64,000 bases of DNA from Gemmatimonas phototrophica (GTDB lineage Bacteria; Gemmatimonadota; Gemmatimonadetes; Gemmatimonadales; Gemmatimonadaceae), in the NCBI GenBank assembly GCA_040394885.1, contig JBEBRK010000011.1, positions 9,549-73,548 on the forward strand, read 5' to 3'. The notes beneath the pieces are model-generated. The model saw only the letters and a list, made by a program, of their open reading frames with translations, did no database searches and was not told the DNA's origin. Position numbers and translations under genes: made by a program. Below, piece by piece: positions 34,558 through 51,497 of this stretch. Every line of letters begins with the position of its first letter. Position 1 is the first letter of the stretch.

Positions 34558-36303
34558 ATGAAAGCAAATTCTTTTAAAGTTTACGGACAGTTATTAAAAA
34601 ACGCTCGAGGCACTGTCATTTTTATGACTGTGTCAGGCGTCATAGCGGGGCTTTGCAGTGCCGGTATTCTGGCACTTGTAAACCAGGCTTTAAATAAAGA
34701 CCATCACATAACCACACTGCTAATCAGCGGGTTCATTGCGTTGGCAGTAGCTAAAATCGTTTCAAACGCTGCGTCCCAGCTGTTGCTGGTAAAATTCTCG
34801 CAGACTACGATTCTCAACCTTTCGATCAGCCTTTGTGGTCGCGTACTCAATGCACCACTACGTGTAATTGAAAGGCATGGTGGCGCCAACATCATGACCA
34901 CCCTTACAGACGACGTCGGAGCAGTGACATGGGCTGTACAGGTCATGCCGCAGCTGGCGATGAACGCTTCTATAGTAATAGGTTGCAGCCTTTACATAGC
35001 CTGGCTGTCAAAGACCATGTTCCTCGGCGCTATGATCGTCGGCTTGCTGGGCGTTGGAGTCTACAAGCTCCTGCATACGAGAGCGGTAGCGCGTATTCAG
35101 GCAGCACGTGATGCAAGAGAGCGCCTGTTCGAGCACTTCAGAACACTGACCGGCGGCATCAAGGAGTTGATGCTCCACAAGGATCGCAGAGATTCGTTCC
35201 TCAATCAGGAGATCAACCGCGCAGCTCAGGAATACCGCTCCAACAATATTGTAGCTACAAAAAACTACGCAATTGCCGAGGGATGGGTACAAACGCTTTA
35301 TCATGCCCTTATGGCATTAGTGCTCTTCGTATCTCCCATATTATTAGAGGCGAGCCCGGAAGCATTAACAGGTTATATGTTTGCGATGTTGTACATGATG
35401 ACTCCGCTCTGGAACATCATAGGGTCCTTACCGCCGATTGCACAGGGAAAGGTCGCGCTCGAGAGGATTGACAAGCTAAACAAATCCATCGAACAGCACT
35501 CAGTAGCTCACTATAACGAGCTCACCGATGGAAAGTCCTCTTCCACAGAAGTCTCCGAAAGACAACTACCAAAGGCCTCCCACATTGAGATGAAAGACAT
35601 TGCGTTTACGTACGCATCTAAATCTCAGATAAAAGATGGTGATCATCCATTTGCACTTGGCCCTCTTGATTTCAGCCTGGCTCCTGGCGAGCTGGTGTTC
35701 GTTATCGGCGGAAATGGAAGTGGAAAGAGTACCTTCGTTAAAGTTTTAACCGGCCTGTACGCACCATCGAGCGGAAGTCTCAAGATCGACGGCAAAGAAG
35801 TCACAGAGTTTTCACGGGAATTGTACAGAGAGAACTTTTCGGTTGTTTTCGCTGAAGTATTTGTATTCGACAAGCTCCTCGGATTGAATTCACCCGACCT
35901 TGAAACGAACGCATTAAAGTATCTGAAGCTGCTTCAGATCGATCACAAGGTATCGATCAGATCAGGCGCGCACGGTCTTGAGTTTACAACAACTCAGCTT
36001 TCAACAGGACAGCGTAAAAGATTGGCACTGGTTACAGCGTATTTAGAAGACAGGCCAATTTATGTTTTCGATGAATGGGCAGCGGATCAGGATCCAGAGT
36101 ACAAGAAGATATTTTATTCGAAGCTCCTTCCGGACCTTCGTAACAGAGGAAAGGCGGTTGTAGTTATAACTCACGACGATCGCTACTTCTCAATGGGTGA
36201 TAGGGTCGTGAAATTGGATGATGGTAAAGTTGTAGATTGGGTTCCAACACCTGACTCTGAATTAGAAGTCCCTATCAAGCTTCCCAATCCACATCACGTC
36301 TAA
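34558..36303 (+). CDS. Cyclic-peptide-type export ABC transporter (SyrD/PvdE/YojI family, fused TMD-NBD)
   Basis: Six predicted TM helices are followed by Walker A GGNGSGKST, signature LSTGQRKRLAL and the family-typical Walker B region YVFDEWAADQDP. Confidence 0.85.
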   Translation: MKANSFKVYGQLLKNARGTVIFMTVSGVIAGLCSAGILALVNQALNKDHHITTLLISGFIALAVAKIVSNAASQLLLVKFSQTTILNLSISLCGRVLNAPLRVIERHGGANIMTTLTDDVGAVTWAVQVMPQLAMNASIVIGCSLYIAWLSKTMFLGAMIVGLLGVGVYKLLHTRAVARIQAARDARERLFEHFRTLTGGIKELMLHKDRRDSFLNQEINRAAQEYRSNNIVATKNYAIAEGWVQTLYHALMALVLFVSPILLEASPEALTGYMFAMLYMMTPLWNIIGSLPPIAQGKVALERIDKLNKSIEQHSVAHYNELTDGKSSSTEVSERQLPKASHIEMKDIAFTYASKSQIKDGDHPFALGPLDFSLAPGELVFVIGGNGSGKSTFVKVLTGLYAPSSGSLKIDGKEVTEFSRELYRENFSVVFAEVFVFDKLLGLNSPDLETNALKYLKLLQIDHKVSIRSGAHGLEFTTTQLSTGQRKRLALVTAYLEDRPIYVFDEWAADQDPEYKKIFYSKLLPDLRNRGKAVVVITHDDRYFSMGDRVVKLDDGKVVDWVPTPDSELEVPIKLPNPHHV

Positions 36304-36321
36304 GCTACGGGGTAGAACTCC

Positions 36322-39180
36322 ATGCCAAATTCGATAGCTGAATTATTGGCGAAGCTCAGAAGTCTAGAGATTGAAATTAAGCTAGACGGAGAAAAGTTCA
36401 GTGTGAGTGCACCAAAAGGAGCACTCACACCAGATATTCAGAATGAGATTCGTGTCAATAAAAGCGACATAATCGCCGCCCTTGGCTCGCCAAAGCCTGG
36501 GACGACCGCAGGAGATTTATCGTTTTGGCAAAAGCTGCTAGCTAACTCTGCTGCTGAAATTGAAATAGCATTCGATAAGCCAAGGGGACTCACTACACCA
36601 CAATTCGATAAAGTTGTTGACGGATTATCAGCACAGGAACACGAAGCGCTAAAAGCAGCAGAACAGAAATTATCGCTCAAGGCAGATGTGATTTTGTTCG
36701 CTGCGTTTCAGATAACTGTAGCCCGACTCGCGTCCCACTACGATGTTATCAGTGCATTTTCTTCGGATGCGGAAGCCGCTGACAGTATCCCTCTACCTGT
36801 AAGAACGGATATATCCGAAAATCCGCACCTGCGTTCGGCGCTCAAAATAATAGCAGAAGCTGTTTCGACATCTCTTTCGCACACAACACCTGAACTATTG
36901 CAGTTTCTGGAAGCAGTACAGGCGTCGAGAGAGGTTTCGAACCTGCCGGCATTTCAAACTGCCTTTAGGTATGCCAAAGACGCCAAAGCTGCGGCACAAC
37001 AATCTGAGGGAAAACAGGAAAACGGGTTAACCGCAGATACAGCAACGGTTACCCAAAACCCTGATATCCGAAAGAACAGATTAACTGCAGATGCAGATCT
37101 TTCACTTTCAGTGTTGGATTGCGACGGAAAAGTTGAACTCTCCCTGACCTACAATTCAGCGATTCAGGAAGCTGCGACAGCCAGGCTTTTCCTGACGCGA
37201 TTCAAGATCGTCTTAAACGCAATCATGGAAAACAAGGATATTGGAATCCTGAACTTTCCGATTGTTACAGATGAAGAACGTGCACGAATTTTAGGAGATT
37301 GGAATCCATCTGATTCTGGGAATTGGGATTTCAACAGATGCGTTGGAGATCTGATATCTGAACAGGCACAAAAAACACCGAACAAGATTGCTATCACTGA
37401 TGGCGTCCGTTTGCTTACTTACAGCGAACTGGAAGCTGAAGCGAATCGCCTCGCAAACTACCTTATTGAAGTTGGAGTCCACCCAAAGAGCAAGGTTGGA
37501 ATCTGCGTCGAACGGTCACCAAACATCGTCATCTCTGCCCTCGCAATCTGGAAGGCGGGAGCTGCATATGTACCACTCGATTCAACCTATCCTAAAGATC
37601 GCCTGGCATACATGGCGGACGATTCCGCCATTGAAGCTCTCATAACAGAAGAGAGCCTGGCTTCACTAGTGGAAGTTGATGCGTCTAAAGCTACGATTGT
37701 ATATCTGGATAAAGATTCCAACAAGATTGCTTCGCAGCCCAGTACAGTACCTGATATCCAGCGTTCGCCAGACGATCTTGCTTATATCATCTACACATCC
37801 GGATCGACCGGACGCCCTAAAGGAGTGATGATACGGCATCTGGGAGTCGCCAACTTCATATTAGCTCTACGCGACAGGACCAACTTTAAAGAGGCTGATA
37901 ACTTCTTTTCGGTCAGTGCAGTATCGTTCGACGTATCCATCGCCGAATATTATATGCCGCTTATTACCGGAGGAACGGTTACGGTCGCTCCCTTCTCTCT
38001 TGCGGCTGACGGAACCAGGCTTAAGGGATTAATGTCCGAATCCAAACCGACCTTTATGCAGGCAACCCCTGCACTTTGGCGGTTGATACTGGACGCTGGC
38101 TGGAAGGATGGTAGAGGAATGACCATCTATTCCGGTGGCGAGGCACTCACAAAGGAGCTGGCGTACTCTCTCTTAAGCACCGGCGCATCCCTCTGGAACC
38201 TCTATGGTCCGACCGAAGTTTCTATTTATTCTCATTTCTATAATGTCCCTGAGAACGCTGAAAGAATATACGTCGGGCGACCGTTTCCCAATTATTGCGT
38301 TTATGTCCTAAACGAGGCCGGTGAACTTGCCCCTCCTAATGTATTAGGGGAGATTTTCTTAGGCGGTGTAGGTGTTGCGGTTGGATATTTAAACAGAGAT
38401 GATCTGACGAAAGAACGTTTTGTTAGAGATCCATTCTCGAAAGCCCCGAATGCCAGAATGTACCAGACTGGGGATCAGGGGCGGTTTAGCAGCAGCGGCG
38501 AACTTGAATGTACCGGCCGGTTGGATAATCAGGTGAAAGTCAGAGGTTTCCGTATTGAACTAGGCGAAATCGAGTCACAGCTTGCCACAGACCCGTCTAT
38601 TAAGAAAGCTGTTGTCGTGGTTAGAGAAGATTCCCCTGGTGACAAACGTATAGTTGCATATGTGCAGCCGACGACCGGTCGCTCAGTTGACCCGGAATCG
38701 CTTAAGCTGATGCTCGGCCAACAGCTCCCGCCTTATATGGTTCCAGCGTTATTCATGACTATGGACTCCTTTCCGCTGACACCAAGCGGGAAGGTAGACA
38801 GTCGGAATCTTCCGGTACCAAAGCTTCAGCGAAGCGCTGCTGCTCAGTTTATAGCCCCGACTTTAGGGTTGGAGTCAGAGGTCGCATCAATCTGGAAAGA
38901 GGTTTTAAAGTTAGAAAAGGTTGGTTCCAACGAAAATTTCTTCGATCTTGGGGGAGACTCACTGCTAGCGGCTCGTTTACAGAATGAGCTGCAGCAGAAG
39001 TATACAATTAACTTCCCACTGGTCGAACTTTTTCGAAGCCCAACGATTTCTGCCATAACCAAGTTTATAGATAGTACAATTGGTGGAAGCATGAATACAT
39101 CCGAGAGTAATAAACGCTCATTCACATCACAGGCCCGTGAACGTGCAATGTTGCAAAATCGTACGAGACCAAAGCATTAG
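36322..39180 (+). CDS. NRPS loading module: TubC_N-type docking domain, relic C-terminal half of a condensation domain, A domain and PCP
   Basis: Docking domain: LLAKLRSLEIEIKLDGEKFSVSAPKGALTPDIQNEI. A-domain cores: LTYSELEAEANRLANYL, YIIYTSGSTGRPKGV, YGPTE, YQTGDQGRF, GRLDNQVKVRGFRIELGEIE and PSGKVD. PCP: FFDLGGDSLLAARL. No HHxxxDG motif is present. Confidence 0.9.
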   Translation: MPNSIAELLAKLRSLEIEIKLDGEKFSVSAPKGALTPDIQNEIRVNKSDIIAALGSPKPGTTAGDLSFWQKLLANSAAEIEIAFDKPRGLTTPQFDKVVDGLSAQEHEALKAAEQKLSLKADVILFAAFQITVARLASHYDVISAFSSDAEAADSIPLPVRTDISENPHLRSALKIIAEAVSTSLSHTTPELLQFLEAVQASREVSNLPAFQTAFRYAKDAKAAAQQSEGKQENGLTADTATVTQNPDIRKNRLTADADLSLSVLDCDGKVELSLTYNSAIQEAATARLFLTRFKIVLNAIMENKDIGILNFPIVTDEERARILGDWNPSDSGNWDFNRCVGDLISEQAQKTPNKIAITDGVRLLTYSELEAEANRLANYLIEVGVHPKSKVGICVERSPNIVISALAIWKAGAAYVPLDSTYPKDRLAYMADDSAIEALITEESLASLVEVDASKATIVYLDKDSNKIASQPSTVPDIQRSPDDLAYIIYTSGSTGRPKGVMIRHLGVANFILALRDRTNFKEADNFFSVSAVSFDVSIAEYYMPLITGGTVTVAPFSLAADGTRLKGLMSESKPTFMQATPALWRLILDAGWKDGRGMTIYSGGEALTKELAYSLLSTGASLWNLYGPTEVSIYSHFYNVPENAERIYVGRPFPNYCVYVLNEAGELAPPNVLGEIFLGGVGVAVGYLNRDDLTKERFVRDPFSKAPNARMYQTGDQGRFSSSGELECTGRLDNQVKVRGFRIELGEIESQLATDPSIKKAVVVVREDSPGDKRIVAYVQPTTGRSVDPESLKLMLGQQLPPYMVPALFMTMDSFPLTPSGKVDSRNLPVPKLQRSAAAQFIAPTLGLESEVASIWKEVLKLEKVGSNENFFDLGGDSLLAARLQNELQQKYTINFPLVELFRSPTISAITKFIDSTIGGSMNTSESNKRSFTSQARERAMLQNRTRPKH

Positions 39181-39190
39181 CCATCTGACC

Positions 39191-42100
39191 ATGAACGCAT
39201 CCGAAAGTTCTTATCCTAATTCAGCTGTTGCAGTAGTTGGCATGTCTGGGCGCTTCCCAGATGCCAATAGTGTATCGCAGTTCTGGCAAAATCTTCTGGA
39301 TGGCGCGGAAGCACTGACAGACCTGTCGGATGATGAGCTTCTAAGTGCAGGTGCCGACGCTGAAAAGATCAAGGATCCGAACTACGTAAGAAAAGCATCT
39401 CTATTGAAAGGTTCGGAGATGTTTGATGCGAACTTCTTCGGAATTAATGCGCGTGAAGCGGAGCTAATAGATCCGCAACAAAGAGTTTTTCTGGAATGCT
39501 GCTGGGAAGCGATAGAAGATGCTGGTTATATCTGCGATAAATACCCTGGAAGCATCTCCGTTTATGCGGGAGCTGGCTACAATACCTACCTCCTTAGACA
39601 TATAGCGGGCAGCTCCGTTTTAAACGATCCCATAACAGCTTATTCAGCTCAGCTTGGGAACGACAAAGATTATCTGGCCACCCGCGTTTCATATAAACTC
39701 GATCTAAAGGGAGCAGCTGCCACAGTTCAGACCGCCTGCTCTACCTCTCTGGTTGCTGTGCAAAGAGCATGGCAGAGCCTGGTAGATTATGAATGCGACA
39801 TGGCTTTAGCCGGCGGCGTCTCGATAGCTCATCCGCAGACAGCCGGGTATCTGTTTATGGATGGAATGATCCTCTCGCCAGACGGACATTGCCGTCCATT
39901 TGACTCCAATGCGCGTGGCACCAGGTTTAGTCCAGGTGCTGGAGTAGTTGTTTTGAAACGCCTATCAGATGCTATTCGCGACAGAGATCAGATCCGTGCA
40001 GTAATTCTATCAGCATCAATCAACAACGATGGAGCGGGCAAGGTTGGCTTCTCTGCACCAAGCGTTGATGGACAGGCTGAATGTATTGCACTTGCTCAGG
40101 CAACGGCGGGAATCGACTCCAGCAATATCGAAAGTATCGGCTTTGTAGAGGCTCACGGAACCGGAACACAGTTAGGCGATCCTATCGAAGTTACAGCGCT
40201 TACGCAGGTTTTCGCTGAGTCCACCGACCGGAAACAGTTCTGCGCATTAGGATCTGGAAAGAGCAACATAGGTCATTTGGATGTGGCAGCCGGCGTTGCT
40301 GGATTTATTAAAACCGTGCTCTGTCTGGAAAACAGAAAGATTCCAGCAACTATCAACTTCGAAACACCGAATCCTCAGATCGACTTCGAGAATAGTCCGT
40401 TTTTCGTAAACACAAAGACTATAGACTGGAAGAGCAATTCACACCCCAGACGTGCTGCCGTCAGCTCATTTGGAATTGGTGGAACCAACGCCCATGCGAT
40501 TCTGGAAGAAGCGCCTGCACGTGAGTATTCGTTTCAGTTCGATGATGATGATAGCAACGCTGTCACACACACACTTGTTCTGTCCGCACGCTCTAAAGCC
40601 GCTCTTTCACAGACGGCTTCCAATCTGGCAGATCATCTGGACAGAGAGAGTCATCTTTCGCTGTCAGATGTAGCATATACACTACAGACTGGCCGCAAAC
40701 GATTCGAACATAGACAGACAATAACGGCCAACTCAATAGGTGACGCCATTTCAGCCTTGCGAGGCGAACGGAAGACCGGTGTTACCTATCTGGATGCTGG
40801 CAACCTCAACGACAACCCTCCTGTAACATTTCTGTTTAGCGGACAGGGGAGTCAGTACGTTGGGATGTGCCGAGATCTGTATAATGAAAATGCAACTTTC
40901 AGACGGTATTTCGATGAGTGCATCGCTGCGCTTCCGGCTTCATTTGGTCAGGATCTAAAAAGCACCATCCTTGGTTTTGAAAGCGGCTCCAAAGTATCGA
41001 CTGACGATAGCAGTGGCGGCAACAGTAGCGGCGGCAGCAGTGGCAACAGCAATGGCAGCAGTAGTAGCGGCAACAATCCAGATACAGCAGCAGCCAATAC
41101 GAGCAACAAACTCACTCAGACCAGCTACACACAGCCAGCACTATTTGCAATTGAATACGCCCTGGCTCGTACACTCATACATGCAGGTATCAGCCCAACT
41201 GCAATGATGGGCCACAGCATCGGTGAATATGTTGCTGCATGCTTGGCTGGAGTTATGTCTGTATCTGATGGCATGAAGCTCGTAAGTGAACGCGGCCGGC
41301 TGATGCAATCGATGGAGCCGGGCAAGATGGTGGCAGTACCGCTATCGGAAGCTGAACTGGCGCCGCTTGTGAACGAACCACTTACAATCGCCGCTATAAA
41401 TACTCCTGAGCTGTGTGTTGTTGCAGGTCCAGGCAACGCCATCGACTCATTTATCGAAAGCTTAGCAAAAAGAGAGATAGAAGTCCGGCCGCTGCACACA
41501 TCTCATGCCTTCCACTCCAGCATGATGGATGCAGCGATCGCTCCATTTATTGAAGCTTTTAAATCGGTTAATCTGAATACCCCCACAATCCCGTACATCT
41601 CAAACCGTACGGGCACATGGATAACTGCGGAACAGGCAACATCTCCCGAGTATTGGGCAGACCATCTGAGACATACAGTTCGTTTCTCGGAAGGTGTTAC
41701 CGAATTATCCAGGATTGACGGGATGGTTTTTGTTGAAGTTGGCCCTGGAAAAACTCTGGCAACTTTAACCCGTCAGTCGCTACAAGGGGCAAAGAACCAG
41801 ACAATCAACACAACTCCGCACGCCATGGATGACACTTCATCTTCGGCTGTGTTTGCAGAAAGCATCGGAAGGCTTTGGGCTGCTGGCCTGGAGATTAACT
41901 GGGATGCCTTTTATTCCGATGATCTGCCATATAAAACATCGTTACCAACTTATCCATTTGAGCGTAAGAAGTTCCTGCTGCCTCTCCGGTCACTTGGTGG
42001 TGCAGGAGTAGATTCTCTACAGAATACTGATTCCACCCAGTCTGCGGAGAATCATCAGAATTCATATGAACGCCCTGACATCAATCAGGAATTCATAGCC

Positions 42101-42364
42101 CCATCTTCTGAAACTGAGAAGTTCCTGGCAGAGACCTGGGAATCTCTTCTGGGGCTGGCATCAATTGGATCGGAAGACAACTTCTTTGAACTTGGCGGCC
42201 ACTCACTTCTGGCAACAAGTCTCATGACTCGCATACATCAGCGTTTTGATATGAGGCTTCCACTCAGAACTATTTTTGACGCTCCAACAATCAAGGAGCT
42301 AAGCCTCGTTATAGACAAACAATCTGCCCCACCAGATGAAGGCAGAGAGGAGATAGAGTTTTGA
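39191..42364 (+). CDS. Type I PKS module KS-AT-carrier protein with no reductive domains
   Basis: KS motifs: DPQQRVFLE, TACSTSLVA, EAHGTGTQLGDP and KSNIGHLDVAAG. AT motifs: GHSIGEYVAA and HAFHS (malonyl-type). Carrier: FFELGGHSLLATS. The ATG at 39191 is preferred because it lies 11 nt after the NRPS-1 stop. Confidence 0.9.
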   Translation: MNASESSYPNSAVAVVGMSGRFPDANSVSQFWQNLLDGAEALTDLSDDELLSAGADAEKIKDPNYVRKASLLKGSEMFDANFFGINAREAELIDPQQRVFLECCWEAIEDAGYICDKYPGSISVYAGAGYNTYLLRHIAGSSVLNDPITAYSAQLGNDKDYLATRVSYKLDLKGAAATVQTACSTSLVAVQRAWQSLVDYECDMALAGGVSIAHPQTAGYLFMDGMILSPDGHCRPFDSNARGTRFSPGAGVVVLKRLSDAIRDRDQIRAVILSASINNDGAGKVGFSAPSVDGQAECIALAQATAGIDSSNIESIGFVEAHGTGTQLGDPIEVTALTQVFAESTDRKQFCALGSGKSNIGHLDVAAGVAGFIKTVLCLENRKIPATINFETPNPQIDFENSPFFVNTKTIDWKSNSHPRRAAVSSFGIGGTNAHAILEEAPAREYSFQFDDDDSNAVTHTLVLSARSKAALSQTASNLADHLDRESHLSLSDVAYTLQTGRKRFEHRQTITANSIGDAISALRGERKTGVTYLDAGNLNDNPPVTFLFSGQGSQYVGMCRDLYNENATFRRYFDECIAALPASFGQDLKSTILGFESGSKVSTDDSSGGNSSGGSSGNSNGSSSSGNNPDTAAANTSNKLTQTSYTQPALFAIEYALARTLIHAGISPTAMMGHSIGEYVAACLAGVMSVSDGMKLVSERGRLMQSMEPGKMVAVPLSEAELAPLVNEPLTIAAINTPELCVVAGPGNAIDSFIESLAKREIEVRPLHTSHAFHSSMMDAAIAPFIEAFKSVNLNTPTIPYISNRTGTWITAEQATSPEYWADHLRHTVRFSEGVTELSRIDGMVFVEVGPGKTLATLTRQSLQGAKNQTINTTPHAMDDTSSSAVFAESIGRLWAAGLEINWDAFYSDDLPYKTSLPTYPFERKKFLLPLRSLGGAGVDSLQNTDSTQSAENHQNSYERPDINQEFIAPSSETEKFLAETWESLLGLASIGSEDNFFELGGHSLLATSLMTRIHQRFDMRLPLRTIFDAPTIKELSLVIDKQSAPPDEGREEIEF
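41008..41077 (+). repeat. Low-complexity Ser/Gly/Asn-coding tract in the KS-AT linker
   Basis: It encodes SSGGNSSGGSSGNSNGSSSSGNN from reiterated AGC/GGC/AAC codons. Confidence 0.6.
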
Positions 42365-45300
42365 CCACTGCTCAATTTATCGCCAGACTTAATGGGTTAG
42401 ACATTCGTCTTACCCGTAAGGGCGACAAATTAAGCGTGAATGCACCAGATGGTGCAATGACGCCTGAACTTCGTGCTGAAATAGCAGACCGCCGAGATCA
42501 ACTCCTCGCCTATCTGGGCACCGGGACAGATTTTGTACTCACTCAATCGCCTGATCCTACCGAAGGTCCACTGTCTTTTGCTCAGCAGCGGCTCTGGTTT
42601 TTATACAGATTAAATCCGCGGGATGTATCGTATAATCTCGCTGTAAGTGCTGTAGTGCCAGAAAGCCTCTCTAATGAAGAGCTTGAATCCCGTATCTCTG
42701 CACTGGTTCGTGACAACCACTCACTACGTACGATATTTCCCGAACGCGATGGTATTCCATTTCAGCGTGTTATAGAAGCTGAACCACATCTTTATATACG
42801 GGATGTGGATGTAGCCAGTGACGATATAGCCCGTCAGCGTGAAATTCAGTACGAGATTATGCGTCAGCCGTTCAAACTTGAGGCAGAAGTTTCAGTACGG
42901 TTCGAGCTCTTAAGACTGCGCGACGGCACCAGAATACTGCTCATTCCGATACATCATATAATATCGGATGCATGGTCGCTTGGAATTCTGATAGACCGGC
43001 TTATAGACGGGAGTTCGTCATCATCATCGTCGAAGTTTCAGTATCTTGACTTTGCAAACTCCGAACAGGCCTGGTTCGCATCACACGATCAGCAGGATCA
43101 CGCCAATTACTGGAATGAGATAATCAAGGGTCCAATACCGGCTCTTGAGCTCCCAACCAAGCCAGTATCATCTTCATTAACAGATGTAGTTGGCGATTCA
43201 TACCAATTCAAATTATCAGCAGAAGTCTCTGACAGGCTGAGGTCTTTGGCTCGCCAGAACGGCGTTACGCTATACAGCGTACTGCTCGGCATATTCAAGG
43301 TTGTCCTGCACAGATATTCAGGCCAACAGGACATACTGGTAGGTTCACCAGTTACGAATCGCTATAGTGTTGAGCTAGAGGATATGATCGGTATCTTCAT
43401 CAACACTATAATTGTGCGTACAAAGTTTGACGGGGAAACACCGTTCGCAAGTGTAGCAAAACAGATTCACAACTCGATGCTGGAATCTTTTGAACATAAA
43501 GATTATCCATTCGAAAAAGTTGTGGAACTTGCCAGACACAACAAATTCCCCTCCAATGCCTCGTTGTTCAGAACCGGCTTTATTCTAAACAACACACCCA
43601 GCGGTGGAAAACATCAGGATTTTACAGGCGGCTCTATCTTCGACCTTAGCCTGTACATGGAAGATGCCAAGGATGGGCTACTTGGAACATTAGAGTATAA
43701 TGTGAATCTGTTTGAGCTGGGTACGATAGAAAGATTTGCTGGCCACTACTCCACGCTGGCACGCGCTATCGCCAACCAGTTTGACGCGAAGATTAATTCT
43801 CTTGAGATTCTTTCTGATGCAGAGAGCGCTCAACTCGACAGCTGGAACGAGACAGCTAGAGAATATCCGAAAGATGTTACAACAGCACAGCTGATTGAAC
43901 GTCAGGCCATAGAACGCGCAAACAGCACAGCTGTTGTATCGAAATCGAAGCAGCTAACATATAACGAGCTGAACAGACGAGCCAATCAACTTGCCAGGCA
44001 TCTTCTGGAAAATGGTGTCTCAAGAGGCTCACTGGTCGGTGTGTGTCTCGACAGAGATGCAGCTATGCTCGTCTCAGTGCTGGCAGTATGGAAAGCTGGC
44101 GCAGCGTATGTTCCGTTAGATCCAACTTATCCTCAGGACAGGTTGGTTTATATGGCAGAAGACGCAAGGCTCGCAGCCATTATTTCCGAATCTAAGTTTG
44201 AATCTCTATCCAATACGATCGCTAGCGCTCCACAGGCTACAGTTGTTCTTGTAGATAAAGAATCAGAAGTAATAAAATCACGCAGCGACGAAAACCAGTC
44301 GCTCGAGCTATCTGCAACAGATGTGGCTTACGTCATCTACACATCTGGTTCTACAGGAAAGCCAAAGGGTGTTCTTATTGAGCACCGTTCTCTGGTAAAC
44401 CTGCTGTATTCCATAAAAGAGCAGCCAGGATTTGTTGAGTCGGATATTATCTTCTCAGTTACTACACTTTCCTTTGATATTGCCGGCCTGGAGCTGTACC
44501 TGCCGCTTATCTCGGGCGCGAAGGTGGTTATCTCCTCAAGACAGACACTTGCAGATCCGAGGGCACTCGCCCGAGAGATAAAGGCCTCCGGTACTACATT
44601 TATACAGGCGACCCCAGCGATGTGGCGCTTCCTCCTGGACTCGGGATGGAAGGATGGTGAAGGCTTAAGAATTCTTTGTGGAGGAGAAGCCCTGCCAAGA
44701 TCTTTGGCAAACGCAATTCTCGCTACAGGAGCTGAGCTGTGGAACGTATACGGGCCAACTGAAACTACAATATGGTCGACCTCTGTACTTGTAGAGAAAT
44801 CTGATTCACCTGTTTCGATAGGTCGGCCGCTTGCAAACACCCAGGTATATGTCCTGGATGAAAACAGCAACCGTTTACCAATCGGCATACCTGGTGAACT
44901 GTATATCGCTGGCGATGGCGTAAGCCGTGGATATTTAAACCGTCCGGACCTGACGTCAGAGCGATTTGTTGAAGATGTTTTTGGGTCAAAGAAAGCATCT
45001 ACTATAGACGAGGGTACTGCTATAGACGATGGTGCTGCGCAAACCAGAAAGATGTACAGAACTGGCGATCAGGTAAGGATGAATCCTGACGGGCAACTGG
45101 AATACATCGGCCGTCTCGATAATCAGGTTAAAGTTCGTGGTTATAGAATCGAGTTAGGTGAAATTGAAGCTGTTCTAGTTAAACACCCCGAGATTCAACA
45201 GGCCGTTGTGGTTGCACGTGAGGACACGCCTGGCGACCAGAGATTGGTGGCATATATCATCGGCAGCAATCGTGAGTTACAGAATACTGCGGACCCCGGC

Positions 45301-46548
45301 GAGTTTTCCCATCTCAGGGAAGAGCTTCGCGAATTCCTCAGCAAGTCGCTACCATCATTTATGGTTCCGGCGACATTTGTACCTCTTGGCAGCTTTCCAT
45401 TAACACCAAATGGAAAGGTTGATCGTAAGGCGCTTCCAGCTCCAGCATCCGATAATAAGGTTCATGGCGGCGATGAAGATCAGGCCCCGCAGTCTGAGTT
45501 AGAACGCAAATTGATTCAGATCTGGGAAAAGGTACTTGGAGTCAAGAACATTGGTCGTAACGACAACTTTTTCGATCTTGGAGGCAATTCGCTGCTGGGG
45601 ATACGCTTACTCTCTGGGATAGAGCGGGCATTAAATATCCGCGTGCCGGTAGCAGTGATATTCCAAGGCCAGACAGTTGCTGCCATGGCCATAACATTAG
45701 CAGATAACAACGAGATCGATCTCCATCTCCGTGCTGTTGCAGTTCAACCTCATGGAGATCTTCCGCCTCTCTTCTTTATTCCAGGAGTAAACGGAAATGT
45801 TATCGGCTACGAAGAGTTCGCAACTGGACTTGGACAGGATCGTCCTCTGTATGGCCTCCGGTCTGTCGGACTTGAAGGAGAGAGCGATCCATTAAATGAT
45901 CTTCCATCTATTGCCAGACACTTTGTAGCAGACGTTAAAAAGGTACAGCCACAAGGGCCTTACAACTTTGTTGGATTCTGTATCGGCGGGATAGTTGCTT
46001 TTGAAATGGCCCAGCAATTAAAAGCCGAGGGCGAAGAGGTGGAATTTCTGGGACTGATCGACACCTGGCCGCAGGACATGGTGCCTGTCCCAAAAGCCGC
46101 TTCGGAAACCGGGCAGCAGTTTTTATATCTGGCCGATGCTTTGAAGCGCAACATCAAAGAATTTTCTGCTATACCCAAAGGAAAAAGACTCAACTATATC
46201 AGACAAAAGCTTGGAGCAGCCACCGACATGGCTACAAAGCTTGATGTTTATAGAGGCGATGATGGTGAACGTCTGCAGGATCTTATAATTGCATCCAACC
46301 AGATCGCAGCCTCAACCTATATTGCATCCAAATACGATGGTCCGCTCAGTTTATTTATTACCCTTGGTGATTTAGAGGGACCTGACTCGAGTGACCCGCG
46401 TCTGTACTGGAAAGCCTTCGGAAACGAGGCAATATCATCTGTAATGTGGATCCCAGGCATAGACTCCGGTTCACTACTAAAGAATCCATACTTACCTGGA
46501 TTGTTGAAAGCACTAAAAACCACCCTAGAAGAAAGGAACAGAATTTGA
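42361..46548 (+). CDS. NRPS termination module: TubC_N-type docking domain, C, A, PCP and TE-like domain
   Basis: Docking: FIARLNGLDIRLTRKGDKLSVNAPDGAMTPELRAEI. C-domain motifs: SFAQQRLWF, HHIISDAWS, YLDFA and IGIFINTIIVR. A-domain cores: YVIYTSGSTGKPKGV, YGPTE, YRTGDQ, GRLDNQVKVRGYRIELGEIE and PNGKVD. PCP: FFDLGGNSLLGIRL. The TE region contains GFCIGG. The TTG start overlaps the PKS stop as TTGA. Confidence 0.9.
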   Translation: MTTAQFIARLNGLDIRLTRKGDKLSVNAPDGAMTPELRAEIADRRDQLLAYLGTGTDFVLTQSPDPTEGPLSFAQQRLWFLYRLNPRDVSYNLAVSAVVPESLSNEELESRISALVRDNHSLRTIFPERDGIPFQRVIEAEPHLYIRDVDVASDDIARQREIQYEIMRQPFKLEAEVSVRFELLRLRDGTRILLIPIHHIISDAWSLGILIDRLIDGSSSSSSSKFQYLDFANSEQAWFASHDQQDHANYWNEIIKGPIPALELPTKPVSSSLTDVVGDSYQFKLSAEVSDRLRSLARQNGVTLYSVLLGIFKVVLHRYSGQQDILVGSPVTNRYSVELEDMIGIFINTIIVRTKFDGETPFASVAKQIHNSMLESFEHKDYPFEKVVELARHNKFPSNASLFRTGFILNNTPSGGKHQDFTGGSIFDLSLYMEDAKDGLLGTLEYNVNLFELGTIERFAGHYSTLARAIANQFDAKINSLEILSDAESAQLDSWNETAREYPKDVTTAQLIERQAIERANSTAVVSKSKQLTYNELNRRANQLARHLLENGVSRGSLVGVCLDRDAAMLVSVLAVWKAGAAYVPLDPTYPQDRLVYMAEDARLAAIISESKFESLSNTIASAPQATVVLVDKESEVIKSRSDENQSLELSATDVAYVIYTSGSTGKPKGVLIEHRSLVNLLYSIKEQPGFVESDIIFSVTTLSFDIAGLELYLPLISGAKVVISSRQTLADPRALAREIKASGTTFIQATPAMWRFLLDSGWKDGEGLRILCGGEALPRSLANAILATGAELWNVYGPTETTIWSTSVLVEKSDSPVSIGRPLANTQVYVLDENSNRLPIGIPGELYIAGDGVSRGYLNRPDLTSERFVEDVFGSKKASTIDEGTAIDDGAAQTRKMYRTGDQVRMNPDGQLEYIGRLDNQVKVRGYRIELGEIEAVLVKHPEIQQAVVVAREDTPGDQRLVAYIIGSNRELQNTADPGEFSHLREELREFLSKSLPSFMVPATFVPLGSFPLTPNGKVDRKALPAPASDNKVHGGDEDQAPQSELERKLIQIWEKVLGVKNIGRNDNFFDLGGNSLLGIRLLSGIERALNIRVPVAVIFQGQTVAAMAITLADNNEIDLHLRAVAVQPHGDLPPLFFIPGVNGNVIGYEEFATGLGQDRPLYGLRSVGLEGESDPLNDLPSIARHFVADVKKVQPQGPYNFVGFCIGGIVAFEMAQQLKAEGEEVEFLGLIDTWPQDMVPVPKAASETGQQFLYLADALKRNIKEFSAIPKGKRLNYIRQKLGAATDMATKLDVYRGDDGERLQDLIIASNQIAASTYIASKYDGPLSLFITLGDLEGPDSSDPRLYWKAFGNEAISSVMWIPGIDSGSLLKNPYLPGLLKALKTTLEERNRI

Positions 46549-48668: not shown

Positions 48669-48709
48669 GCTGGCAAAATAGTCTTATAGCAGTAGACGTT
48701 TTATACAGT

Positions 48710-48741
48710 TGCTGGCTCTAAGAAATATTTTGGAGCCAGCA
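48710..48741 (+). terminator. Hairpin downstream of dcp (possible terminator)
   Basis: TGCTGGCTC ... GAGCCAGCA stem. No clean U-tract follows it. Confidence 0.35.
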
Positions 48742-48768
48742 TATCTATTAAGAAGAAGAAGAAAGTTT

Positions 48769-48820
48769 AAAGTGACCTCCAAAAGCCGGACATTGCGTCC
48801 ATACTTTTGGAGGTCACTTT
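48769..48820. repeat. Conserved extragenic hairpin element, copy 2
   Basis: AAAGTGACCTCCAAAAG / CTTTTGGAGGTCACTTT stem with the same GGACATTGCGTCC core as copy 1. It ends 3 nt from the sufE-like stop. Confidence 0.85.
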
Positions 48821-48823
48821 GTA

Positions 48824-49282
48824 TTATGCCATTGCCTCTTTTGCATATCGCTTGAGACGCGTCAACATTGCATTCAATCCCGTTTCACGGGTGTGCAAAC
48901 CAATACCGTCCATTAAAACTCTGACAAAGTCTTGTGGAATTGCTAATGTTACTTCGGGTGGTTGATCGTTAACAGCTGAAAAGATAATCGCCAGTAATGC
49001 AGCAATAGTTGGAGACTGTCTGACATTCACATCTGCATAGAAGTGCACCTTCCCATCCATGTATTGTGGGAATATGTCCACTCTGGTCTGGCACTCAGGG
49101 ATCGTGTAATTCGTGCGATCAATCGCCACAAACTTCTCTGGCAACGGCTCCAGCTTCTTGGAATATGACACCAGAGCCTGCATCTTCTCATCGCGCCCCA
49201 TAGCCTGAAATCTGCGCAGAACCTTGGATATAGACTCCGGAATTCCAGCCATCTCATCTGCTGAGTTTGAAATTTCGCTCAT
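48824..49282 (-). CDS. sufE: SufE-like cysteine desulfuration / Fe-S assembly accessory protein
   Basis: The 152-aa length and the Cys motif IPECQTRVDIF fit the SufE family, as does the ending GLNAMLTRLKRYA. Confidence 0.75.
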   Translation of the reverse strand: MSEISNSADEMAGIPESISKVLRRFQAMGRDEKMQALVSYSKKLEPLPEKFVAIDRTNYTIPECQTRVDIFPQYMDGKVHFYADVNVRQSPTIAALLAIIFSAVNDQPPEVTLAIPQDFVRVLMDGIGLHTRETGLNAMLTRLKRYAKEAMA

Positions 49283-49372
49283 ATTGAAAGATCGCCTCTA
49301 TGACATGACTATGTCAAACTATACCAAACTATGCCCCTTGCGAAGCTTGAGGCCACCGCATAGCTTAATCTT

Positions 49373-49456
49373 ATGATCGCACACGCCACAACATTCAGCT
49401 TTTATTTTAGCAGCTTTTGGGGAAGCCCCGGAGGCTGGTGTTTTGCGTGTGCTTAA
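49373..49456 (+). CDS. Aromatic-amino-acid-rich leader peptide (27 aa), MIAHATTFSFYFSSFWGSPGGWCFACA
   Basis: Hand translation from the ATG at 49373 to the TAA at 49454-49456. The peptide contains 5 Phe, 1 Tyr and 2 Trp codons. It overlaps the 5' arm of an antiterminator helix upstream of a DAHP synthase gene. Confidence 0.6.
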   Translation: MIAHATTFSFYFSSFWGSPGGWCFACA

Positions 49457-49503
49457 GAATCAAAGTTAGTAAATAAGCCAAACCGACACCCTACAGCCTC
49501 CGG
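49428..49503 (+). promoter_or_regulatory. Putative antiterminator helix of the aro leader
   Basis: CCGGAGGCTG (49428-49437) is the exact reverse complement of CAGCCTCCGG (49494-49503). The latter contains the 5' arm of the terminator. Confidence 0.55.
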
Positions 49504-49529
49504 AATTCAACCGGGGGCTTTTTTGTTTT
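49496..49529 (+). terminator. Rho-independent terminator (attenuator) upstream of the DAHP synthase gene
   Basis: GCCTCCGG-aattcaa-CCGGGGGC forms 8 bp with one G:U pair. It is followed by TTTTTTGTTTT. Confidence 0.7.
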
Positions 49530-49549
49530 CCATATCATCCACACCCCAA

Positions 49550-50452
49550 ATGCTCACATTACCACAATCATCACCTAACGCTATAGAGGGCCTTCTAGAT
49601 CGAAGGCCGATAAGCACGGCCTACCCGTTAGCATCTCACATCCATTCTGGCTCCAGAAAAACTACTCCAGTCCAGATTACACCAACCCTGTCTATCGGCG
49701 GCGATAAGGTTGTCATGATCGCGGGCCCATGCTCAATAGAATCTGAGGCTATGGCACAGGAGTGTGCATCAACACTCGCGAAGATGGGCATCGATATGTT
49801 ACGTGGTGGCGCATATAAACCGCGAACATCTCCATACGATTTCCAAGGGCTGGGACGCAATGGAATCGAGATACTTGAATCGGTGCGCAGCTCTACAAAT
49901 ATCCCGGTTGTGACAGAAGTGATGGACGTCAGACTAGTTAATGACGTAGCTCAAAAAGTAGATATGATTCAGGTTGGAGCCCGCAATATGCAAAACTATC
50001 CATTGCTTATGGAGCTGGGCTTATGTGGTAAGCCAGTATTACTCAAACGTGGACATTCAGCTCGCATTCAGGAACTTATACTTGCAGCTGAATACATCAT
50101 GAAGCATGGTAATAACTCTGTTGTCCTATGCGAACGTGGCATTCGTACCTTTGAAAATGCAACGAGAAACACATTGGATGTATCTGCAATACCAGTATTA
50201 AAGGCTGAAACCCACCTCCCTGTCATTGTTGATCCAAGCCACGCAGCAGGAAATAACTCATACGTCACACCTCTGGCAAATGCCGCTATCGCTGCTGGCG
50301 CAGACGGACTGATTGTAGAAGTGCACCCGGATCCAGCATCAGCACTTTCGGATGCCGATCAACAGTTAAACTACAACGAATTCTCAGTATTGATGCGCCG
50401 GATTGCCATGATAGCAGTTGCATGCGGAAGAACAGTCAACTGGCAACTATAA
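49550..50452 (+). CDS. aroF: 3-deoxy-7-phosphoheptulonate (DAHP) synthase, type I-beta, without a recognisable regulatory domain
   Basis: Contains MIAGPCSIES, LRGGAYKPRTSPYDFQG, KRG and VDPSH motifs. The ATG at 49550 is preferred because the listed TTG at 49523 sits inside the terminator U-tract. Confidence 0.85.
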   Translation: MLTLPQSSPNAIEGLLDRRPISTAYPLASHIHSGSRKTTPVQITPTLSIGGDKVVMIAGPCSIESEAMAQECASTLAKMGIDMLRGGAYKPRTSPYDFQGLGRNGIEILESVRSSTNIPVVTEVMDVRLVNDVAQKVDMIQVGARNMQNYPLLMELGLCGKPVLLKRGHSARIQELILAAEYIMKHGNNSVVLCERGIRTFENATRNTLDVSAIPVLKAETHLPVIVDPSHAAGNNSYVTPLANAAIAAGADGLIVEVHPDPASALSDADQQLNYNEFSVLMRRIAMIAVACGRTVNWQL

Positions 50453-50453
50453 C

Positions 50454-51497
50454 ATGACCATACTTGTCGGATACCAGGGAGAGATCGGTTGCTACAGTGA
50501 AGAAGCCGCCATTCAGTATTGGGGCGGCAATATAAAACTGACACCACACAAAACGTTTGAAGATGTGCTGTCTTCGCTGGTACATGGTGATATAAGCCAT
50601 GCAATTCTCCCAATTTACAATTCCATAATCGGACCAATTGCGGCTTGCCATCAAGCCATGGAAAATTATTTGGGCAGCTCTGAAAGAATTGACAGCCTGC
50701 CCAAAATATCTATCCCTGTAAAACATGCTCTACTCTGTCACAAAGACTCACCTTTACAGGAAGACGACCTTTCCCTGATTTCCAGAATAATCTCACACCC
50801 AGCAGCTCTGTTGCAGTGCAGCGACTTTATCACTTCCCTTCAGAAAAAATACACTTCCAAAGATAAGTCTCCCACTGTTATAGAATTCTATGATACGGCT
50901 GGTGCAGCGCGCTTTATTCAGGATAAAGTGTGGGATGTTGCCATCGCCAGCGAAAGGTGCGCGGAAGTATATGGCCTTAGAATTATAAGAAGATGCATAC
51001 AGGACAGAACAGACAACTTCACCAAGTTCGCCATACTTGAGCGATCAGATATTGCAGATATCTCTGAGATTACCGACCATACTCTTATAGGAATCCGTGG
51101 CGCTATAACAATCGACGAAGATACGGATCAGGCAATATCCACAGCTACTACAGAGCTTCTTAGCTCGATACTGGAGTCAAACAATCTATCCAAGTCGGAC
51201 ATTATAAGTGCAGTGTTCACCGCAACCTCTGATATTCGTGCTGCATTTCCAGCTAAACATGCCAGAGAAATTGGATGGAACACAGTTCCTATGTTATGTG
51301 CAACCGAAATGGAGGTTAATGGAGCGCTCCCAATGTGCATTCGAGTATTGCTCCATGTAAGAAAACCCTCACACCACGAGACAGTTCATCATATCTATCT
51401 TCGCGGTGCAAGGGTCTTACGTCCTGATATTTCCTACAGTGCAGACAACTATATACTCCCTAAAGCAGACTTAAGATCTTCTATAATATCGCTATAG
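50454..51497 (+). CDS. pheA: Prephenate dehydratase fused to a C-terminal AroH-class chorismate mutase
   Basis: PDT region: VGYQGEIGCYSEEAA ... DNFTKFAIL. C-terminal region: IRGAITIDEDTDQAI ... FPAKHAREIGW ... CIRVLLHV ... HIYLRGARVLRPDIS, which closely parallels B. subtilis AroH. The ATG lies 1 nt after the aroF stop. Confidence 0.8.
   Translation: MTILVGYQGEIGCYSEEAAIQYWGGNIKLTPHKTFEDVLSSLVHGDISHAILPIYNSIIGPIAACHQAMENYLGSSERIDSLPKISIPVKHALLCHKDSPLQEDDLSLISRIISHPAALLQCSDFITSLQKKYTSKDKSPTVIEFYDTAGAARFIQDKVWDVAIASERCAEVYGLRIIRRCIQDRTDNFTKFAILERSDIADISEITDHTLIGIRGAITIDEDTDQAISTATTELLSSILESNNLSKSDIISAVFTATSDIRAAFPAKHAREIGWNTVPMLCATEMEVNGALPMCIRVLLHVRKPSHHETVHHIYLRGARVLRPDISYSADNYILPKADLRSSIISL

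Follow-up and report, generated by a model that had tools for sequence, protein, structure and literature searches.

A predicted Phe/Tyr-responsive transcription attenuator upstream of a DAHP synthase operon in Gemmatimonas phototrophica

Introduction

In a 64,000-nucleotide stretch of DNA from Gemmatimonas phototrophica (GenBank assembly GCA_040394885.1, contig JBEBRK010000011.1, positions 9,549 to 73,548 of the forward strand; hereafter the window), a gene for 3-deoxy-D-arabino-heptulosonate 7-phosphate (DAHP) synthase is preceded by a short open reading frame (ORF) rich in aromatic codons, which is followed by an intrinsic terminator. We propose that this element, at 49373-49529, is probably a Phe/Tyr-responsive ribosome-mediated transcription attenuator of the operon that encodes the DAHP synthase and a prephenate dehydratase (PDT) fused to a chorismate mutase (CM), a proposal drawn from sequence, folding and comparison between related loci. 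An earlier interpretation of the same DNA, made from its letters only (the sequence-only reading), had claimed the architecture of ribosome-mediated attenuation here, and we find all of its sequence-level hallmarks to be present and conserved in orthologous leaders. Two of the findings which that reading said would count against it were absence of the leader in relatives and an antiterminator unable to compete with the terminator; the leader is present in relatives and its antiterminator is competitive.

The mechanism that we envisage would begin with transcription starting at, or within one or two bases of, the leader AUG at 49373, so that translation would be leaderless, and the nascent RNA would adopt a long hairpin, P0/P1, spanning 49379-49452. 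If Phe and Tyr are plentiful, the ribosome would reach the stop codon at 49454, leaving segment 2 either beneath it or back in its helix with segment 1; the terminator (49495-49519 and the U-tract) would then be made from segments 3 and 4, and the transcript would stop 20 nt short of the DAHP synthase gene. When charged tRNA-Phe or tRNA-Tyr is scarce the ribosome would be expected to stall on the F-Y-F codons of an internal loop, and the stalled ribosome would prevent the 5' strands of P0 and P1 from pairing. Segment 2, together with the adjacent GGUGUU, would in that case pair with segment 3 (49485-49503), no terminator would be made and the operon would be transcribed.

The leader ORF and its RNA structures

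Related loci were taken from contigs encoding the nearest DAHP synthase homologues and from one metagenome pattern scan, which gave ten loci beyond the window; counts out of 11 refer to the window plus these ten, among which there are at least eight distinct sequences. The features of the element in the window are as follows.

49373 to 49456, plus strand: leader ORF of 27 codons, MIAHATTFSFYFSSFWGSPGGWCFACA, running from the ATG at 49373, its only in-frame start, to the TAA at 49454-49456
49379 to 49395, plus strand: 5' strand of the outer helix P0, comprising P0a (GCACACGC, 49379-49386) and P0b (AACAUU, 49390-49395), from the minimum free energy (MFE) structure and an 8/8 repeat match
49394 to 49420, plus strand: putative regulatory aromatic codons F8 S9 F10 Y11 F12 S13 S14 F15 W16, with Y11 and F12 in an unpaired internal loop
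49411 to 49422, plus strand: segment 1 (CAGCUUUUGGGG), the 5' arm of helix P1, pairing 12/12 (including G-U) with 49426-49437 and invariant in 9 of 11 loci
49426 to 49437, plus strand: segment 2 (CCCCGGAGGCUG), the 3' arm of P1 and the 5' arm of the antiterminator, from the pairing analysis
49437 to 49452, plus strand: 3' strand of P0, comprising GGUGUU (49437-49442), which also lengthens the antiterminator, and GCGUGUGC (49445-49452)
49485 to 49503, plus strand: segment 3, the 3' strand of the antiterminator, comprising GACACC (49485-49490) and CAGCCUCCGG (49494-49503), the latter doubling as the 5' arm of the terminator
49511 to 49529, plus strand: segment 4 (CCGGGGGCU, 49511-49519) and U-tract, completing an intrinsic terminator kept in all relatives

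The coordinates of the 27-codon ORF given by the sequence-only reading agree with the sequence, and the eight aromatic residues that it counted among the 27 are all present (F8, F10, F12, F15, F24, Y11, W16 and W22). A density of at least six aromatic residues in nine codons is reached by the leader ORF and by two others among 1200 small ORFs of the window, and these other two are alternative frames within long genes. The leader codons are thereby enriched in the end products of the pathway downstream (six aromatics in nine codons, ahead of a DAHP synthase and PDT/CM), and codons F10-Y11-F12 lie in the unpaired internal loop immediately 5' of segment 1. W22 and F24 are probably irrelevant to regulation, because only the N-terminal aromatic part is kept as peptide in the related leaders while the remainder is kept as RNA. 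No Shine-Dalgarno sequence was found upstream of the leader ORF.

The pairing that had been claimed between CCGGAGGCTG (49428-49437) and CAGCCTCCGG (49494-49503) was recovered at 10/10 by an inverted-repeat search. The terminator, too, is as described: a 9-bp G+C-rich stem closing a 7-nt loop (49495-49519) and then TTTTTTGTTTT as far as 49529, with a folding energy of -16.6 kcal/mol and exactly 20 nt between it and the DAHP synthase ATG at 49550. Overlooked was an anti-antiterminator hairpin, P0 plus P1 (49379-49452, -33.6 kcal/mol), in which the ORF makes up almost the whole 5' strand of a two-tier structure; in the MFE structure P0a pairs GCACACGC with GCGUGUGC and P0b pairs AACAUU with GGUGUU, and P1 on its own has an energy of -18.0 kcal/mol. 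The antiterminator is also longer than had been seen, with CCGGAGGCUGGUGUU pairing to GACACC...AGCCUCCGG (49485-49503) over 15 bp. The sequence-only reading had proposed comparing the energies of the alternative structures, and this antiterminator duplex, at -26.8 kcal/mol against -16.6 kcal/mol for the terminator, is indeed competitive. The 176-nt region as a whole folds with z = -3.45, an energy equalled by none of 200 shuffles. The arrangement is that of a leader attenuator, in that the terminator lies between the ORF and the first gene, the 2:3 antiterminator and the 3:4 terminator are mutually exclusive, and the 5' strand of the 1:2 helix lies inside the ORF.

The effect of a ribosome was modelled with a 28-nt footprint in a crude equilibrium calculation that ignores kinetics. 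With the A site at Y11 or F12 the MFE of the window sequence turns to the antiterminator, and with the A site at F10, F15, W16 or the stop codon it is the terminator. Across the related leaders the unconstrained MFE is P0/P1 plus terminator in all 11. The 5' strand up to segment 1 was then masked to mimic a stalled ribosome: with everything through segment 1 masked, segment 2 pairs with segment 3 in 11/11 before segment 4 exists, and at full length it does so in nine of the 11.

Conservation in related loci

The sequence-only reading had not seen that homologous leaders exist, which share a core peptide, a near-invariant 24-nt core and all four pairing segments. The DAHP synthase of the window has no near relative: identity is 66-67% at best, and 65% at best in a scan of GTDB representative genomes, and the nearest named DAHP synthases belong to Gemmatimonadota. 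LeuC is 62-65% identical to proteins from a mixture of Acidobacteriota, Gemmatimonadota and Polyangia, with no named taxon above 65%, and one Logan contig matches it at 97%. A covariance model of the leader, R1, was built in this analysis and scores 97-168 bits at L081/82, L083, L084, L086/87/93, L096, L102, L110, L115 and L119; partial copies are found in L085 (142 bits, cut at its 5' end) and L118 (55 bits, part of L096), and the divergent L116 is a weak match at 24 bits. Every R1 match with downstream DNA precedes a DAHP synthase gene. The metagenome pattern scan returned 27 stretches, only four of them true by the covariance model, so the leader sub-family is rare in that collection.

The loci span at least four distinct genomic contexts. 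Synteny with the window, over the M3 peptidase, sufE, DAHP synthase, PDT-CM, a Cys/Met pyridoxal phosphate-dependent enzyme and AsnC, is seen in L083, L084 and L115, L084 additionally having a nonribosomal peptide synthetase (NRPS), and L081, L086/L119 and L116 represent other neighbourhoods. Nucleotide identity to the window is 69-75% in the leader against 56-64% in the DAHP synthase coding sequence, and TTTAGCAGCTTTTGGGGA is invariant across the first five aligned loci. The CCGAC motif upstream of the terminator is likewise conserved in the alignment.

An in-frame ATG or GTG with aromatic codons is present in 11/11 loci. The peptides share the core ATT(F/Y)(F/S)..(F/Y)FSSFWG and then diverge, the C-terminus not being conserved: L083, L084 and L115 have changed frame through the loss of 1 nt after GGGGAAGCCC, L081 has a 3-nt insertion, and the stop codons fall 0-27 nt past P0 across the loci. 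A codon-position test over all 11 is uninformative because of such codon indels. It gives a clear result only for L081, L086, L096 and L102, which share one 12-residue core, ATTYFYFSSFWG, and differ only at five synonymous third positions.

P0 is present in every sequence with differing bases, for example GCACACGC/GCGUGUGC in the window, GCGCGACGAC/GUUGUCGCGC in L086, and ACCAG/UUGGU plus AUGCA/UGCAU in L083. Column-wise covariation of P0 failed because the helix register slips between clades, and it was replaced by a comparison of arm duplexes, which average -17.5 kcal/mol for cognate arms and -11.7 kcal/mol for arms from different clades. The sequence-only reading had proposed looking for covariation in orthologous leaders. 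It is seen as compensatory changes in P0 and in L116, where segments 2 and 3 are altered together (CCCCAGG/CCUGGGG), and there is little of it in P1 and the terminator; RNAalifold reports only three pairs with compensatory changes, and two P0 pairs show 3-4 such changes.

The most divergent member of the family, at L116:1063-1243, has a Tyr-skewed leader (MRRLSSATRFTSDYYRSYWG...), which suggests that specificity drifts within the leader family.

Promoter-like element and a possible leaderless start

The sequence-only reading had also missed the absence of a Shine-Dalgarno sequence and the putative leaderless start. Immediately upstream of the ORF lies a promoter-like element.

49338 to 49343, plus strand: putative -35 element TTGCGA, found as TTGCGN at equal distance in 11/11 related loci
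49361 to 49366, plus strand: putative -10 element TAGCTT, separated by a 17-nt spacer from the -35 element and lying 6 nt before the ATG

All 11 loci have TTGCGN, the 17-nt spacer and a -10-like hexamer (TAGCTT, TACCAT, TACGAT, CATATT or TATACT), which stands 6-7 nt from the start codon in ten of them and 9 nt from it in L116. From this spacing, transcription would be expected to start at or next to the AUG or GUG, and we somewhat favour the view that the leader ORF would be translated from a leaderless start. An SD-like 4-mer is found at -20..-4 in 6 of 31 long ORFs of the window against a background of 12%, and the genome appears to be Shine-Dalgarno-poor.

Between the sufE start and the leader promoter-like element (49301-49335) there is a palindrome, GACATGACTATGTC, and a direct repeat, CAAACTAT, present twice; relatives have TGTCAAACGATTGACA at the equivalent place (L083:2739-2756). 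These repeats may be an operator or the sufE promoter.

Genes around the leader

The genes of the operon downstream are as follows.

49550 to 50452, plus strand: type I-beta DAHP synthase of 300 amino acids (TIGR01361), without an N-terminal regulatory domain
50454 to 51497, plus strand: PDT fused to an AroH-type CM, without ACT, from profile matches

The PDT gene begins one base after the DAHP synthase stop codon. That neither enzyme has a recognisable allosteric domain had been part of the sequence-only reading, and the profiles agree. The DAHP synthase is a bare I-beta core, since it matches TIGR01361 and aligns only from position 58 of the 338 positions of NF006421, and the PDT lacks ACT, since only about 190 of the 284 positions of PDT models are covered. 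The accompanying suggestion that attenuation stands in for the absent allosteric domains is speculative. Comparable leaders are found in Gemmatimonadales relatives whose DAHP synthase starts some 240 nt before the catalytic-core match (MLIVTRSGITDAEL...). In five Gemmatimonadales DAHP synthases this extension is probably the N-terminal PF18152 domain, which is carried by many DAHP synthase homologues of 340-360 amino acids; if the Gemmatimonadales enzymes do carry it, attenuation would not simply be a substitute for allostery.

The C-terminal CM_1 (AroH-type) fusion of the PDT (50454-51497) also occurs in L083 and L115, and separate, overlapping PDT and CM_1 genes are found in L081, L086, L116 and L119. 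The PDT-CM order differs from that of the E. coli P-protein (AroQ CM-PDT-ACT).

Upstream, the neighbour of the leader is a SufE/CsdE-like gene on the minus strand (48824-49282). The intergenic region is divergent, so the terminator cannot serve the sufE-like gene, and the idea that it is the terminator of the upstream gene was ruled out. A 14-bp hairpin, TGCTGGCTCTAAGAAATATTTTGGAGCCAGCA, at 48710-48741, between the convergent M3 peptidase (ending at 48668) and sufE (ending at 48824), is probably a bidirectional terminator. Several NRPS genes form a block at 34558-46548, upstream of both the M3 peptidase and the sufE/DAHP synthase locus; the domains of its last protein are TubC_N docking, C, A, PCP and TE, and its final gene is syntenic in L084 (L084:1). 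The sole Rfam match in the window is a tRNA on the minus strand (2298-2370, 69.4 bits), and its anticodon loop, AUCGCAC as read by eye, suggests tRNA-Ala(CGC).

Aromatic leaders in other phyla

A wider scan covered 77 type I-beta DAHP synthase loci from GTDB species representatives and looked for at least five aromatics in nine codons together with a downstream hairpin/T-run terminator. Under this strict definition 11 of the 77 were positive on the coding strand and 0/77 on the reverse-complement control; by eye, more than 11 aromatic leaders can be seen before type I-beta DAHP synthase genes. Example leader loci among L001-L080 are:

L002:2680-2830
L001:2570-2720
L007:2607-2770
L012:2640-2790
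L048:333-470
L079:2642-2790
L033:2534-2720

Unrelated aromatic leaders with terminators occur in Gemmatimonadota, Acidobacteriota, one Myxococcota locus (L011), Actinomycetota and Clostridia. Read by eye, those of Gemmatimonadales (MHRAAFFAFAFYFGSS...) have the same TTGCGC-17-GACATT-6-ATG layout, a Gemmatimonadaceae locus has a Tyr-rich leader (MSFTQSYYAYYYS...), Acidobacteriota have YFWFWFGFYF, SFAYYWFW and IYWFRFW, an Actinomycetota locus has QFWFWFG and a Clostridia group has YSYLFFSWGYYY. The mixture of Phe, Tyr and Trp varies among these unrelated leaders (FFAFAFYF, YYAYYY, YFWFWFGFYF, QFWFWFG). None of the leaders from the wider phyla is alignable with the leader family of the window and none matches Rfam.

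Alternative explanations

The region could be read as a protein- or ligand-controlled attenuator or a riboswitch, in which a factor or small molecule binds the UUUUAYUUUAGCAGCUUUUGGGGA core and steadies P0/P1, the ORF being incidental. Such a reading would account for the near-invariance of this 24-nt core even at synonymous sites (AGC AGC TTT TGG GGA is identical in nine of the 11 loci), for the use of TTT and never TTC within it, and for the lack of a Shine-Dalgarno sequence. However, every locus has its start codon in frame and at a constant spacing to the promoter-like element, and the ATT and Tyr codons vary synonymously. The unrelated leaders before the same gene in other phyla share aromatic richness only, not RNA sequence, and no riboswitch or T-box of Rfam matches. 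Segment 1 is, moreover, already under three constraints: the peptide that it encodes, its pairing with segment 2 and, at one remove, segments 3 and 4. We therefore consider control by a bound factor or ligand improbable. The same region might instead be an independent small RNA or small-protein gene with its own terminator, which acts in trans and whose adjacency to the operon is coincidental; its own promoter-like element and strong terminator predict a discrete transcript of about 155 nt, and RNAs and peptides derived from attenuators are reported to be able to act in trans elsewhere, for example rnTrpL/peTrpL of S. meliloti. Against this, the element is always directly upstream of, and co-oriented with, a DAHP synthase gene across its different neighbourhoods, the C-terminus of the peptide is not conserved, and the DAHP synthase showed no promoter-like site of its own in the 20 nt after the terminator or in a scan of 48700-50000. 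A role in trans would in any case supplement attenuation in cis and not replace it, and a free-standing gene is in our judgement more improbable still. The T-box/riboswitch and stand-alone small RNA readings were accordingly considered and rejected.

It is also conceivable that a chance ORF overlies a constitutive hairpin of the 5' untranslated region and a leaky terminator, with no sensing of amino acids. The evidence is, after all, based on sequence, and there is no shortage of short ORFs (8 kb contain 132 that encode 20 amino acids or more). Yet the aromatic density of the leader is matched by so few of the small ORFs of the window, the aromatic core is kept across loci whose DAHP synthases are only about 65% identical, and the strict scan for leader plus terminator found its 11 loci on the forward strand and none on the reverse complement. 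Of the accounts weighed, chance seems to us the least believable.

Some observations nevertheless weigh against Phe/Tyr-responsive attenuation. In the equilibrium footprint model stalls at F15 and W16 yield the terminator, which leaves just two or three codons that look effective, and with the 5' strand masked the terminator is still the thermodynamic winner in two of the 11 relatives. The invariance of the TTT and AGC codons exceeds what coding and P1 pairing strictly need, and P1 and the terminator show little true covariation in RNAalifold because both are almost invariant. With no Shine-Dalgarno sequence, translation of the ORF hangs on the putative leaderless start, and the start codon is GTG in four of the 11 loci (L086, L102, L110 and L119). 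The pattern TTGCG-N18-ANNNT shows no enrichment in the rest of the window (8 occurrences against 9.5 expected), so the argument for a leaderless start comes from conservation across loci alone; by the same count, this pattern cannot be shown to be a general promoter of the organism, an idea that was set aside.

Comparison with known systems

None of the 4227 models of Rfam 15 matches the leader at gathering level, in the window or in 12 related loci, and an E-value search of 49250-49600 returned nothing below E = 1. The gamma-proteobacterial Phe_leader (RF01859) scores 16.8 bits against a gathering threshold of 55 (E = 2.7), and only the terminator aligns. A literature search joining leader peptide, attenuator and Gemmatimonadetes found no paper.

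There are precedents elsewhere. With the E. coli pheL-pheA leader (RF01859), and with the trp, his, thr and leu leaders, the element shares the four-segment logic and the placing of cognate codons just upstream of or in segment 1, and as in pheL-pheA a Phe-branch enzyme (PDT/CM) would be under control. It differs from pheL-pheA in lacking a Shine-Dalgarno sequence, in having mixed Phe/Tyr codons and not a pure Phe run, in an operon that opens with an enzyme of the common pathway, and in belonging to an SD-poor lineage. In Corynebacterium glutamicum the aroR leader (Phe-Tyr-Phe) lies upstream of aroF and is reported to respond to Phe limitation by stalling-dependent attenuation (Neshat et al., 2014, as summarised in PMC11802643 and PMC4046766). 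The leader described here likewise stands before a DAHP synthase operon and has a Phe-Tyr-Phe core, a resemblance of function; by comparison with that actinomycetotal system it is longer and has the two-tier P0/P1 anti-antiterminator. To our knowledge, the AroF of C. glutamicum is not a type I-beta DAHP synthase.

The uORFC-13-1 motif of Acholeplasma has a predicted upstream ORF (uORF) with Phe codons, promoter elements and an adjacent terminator directly upstream of aroF (Brewer et al., 2021, PMC8632094). It has in common with the present element an aromatic uORF and an intrinsic terminator immediately before a DAHP synthase gene. However, uORFC-13-1 has a ribosome-binding site and a U-run that encodes one Phe or more, and is confined to Acholeplasma and environmental sequences, whereas here there is no ribosome-binding site, the core is a mixture of F, Y and W, and the sequence is different. 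Regulatory short ORFs that are leaderless have been described in the poly-Cys attenuators of mycobacteria (bioRxiv 10.1101/834739), and the ilvB leader ORF of C. glutamicum is reported to have no ribosome-binding site (PMC4046766). The present leader would resemble both in a 5'-AUG/GUG start at the transcription start, here predicted from promoter spacing, and it differs from them in taxa and amino-acid specificity. The mechanism is thus a textbook one with precedents at DAHP synthase genes, and the leader family itself is uncatalogued in Rfam 15.

Significance

The element may be one of a large and undescribed set of aromatic attenuators of type I-beta DAHP synthases, apparently polyphyletic and mostly leaderless or nearly so, in Gemmatimonadota, Acidobacteriota, Actinomycetota, Clostridia and this lineage. 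In such a set, the codon content of the leader (e.g. YYAYYY, FFAFAFYF or YFWFWFGFYF) would match each isozyme to Phe, Tyr or Trp, and the unusually invariant 24-nt core maybe hints at a second role of the released leader RNA. We put the chances of this broader picture at about even.

Understanding of the attenuation mechanism itself is unchanged by the element. It would extend leader-peptide attenuation to a poorly known, SD-poor lineage at the committed step of the shikimate pathway, and a seed alignment and covariance model now exist for a leader family missing from Rfam 15. The leaders also suggest that DAHP synthase isozyme specificity could be readable from leader codons in many phyla, which would aid the annotation of metagenome-assembled genomes and metabolic modelling.

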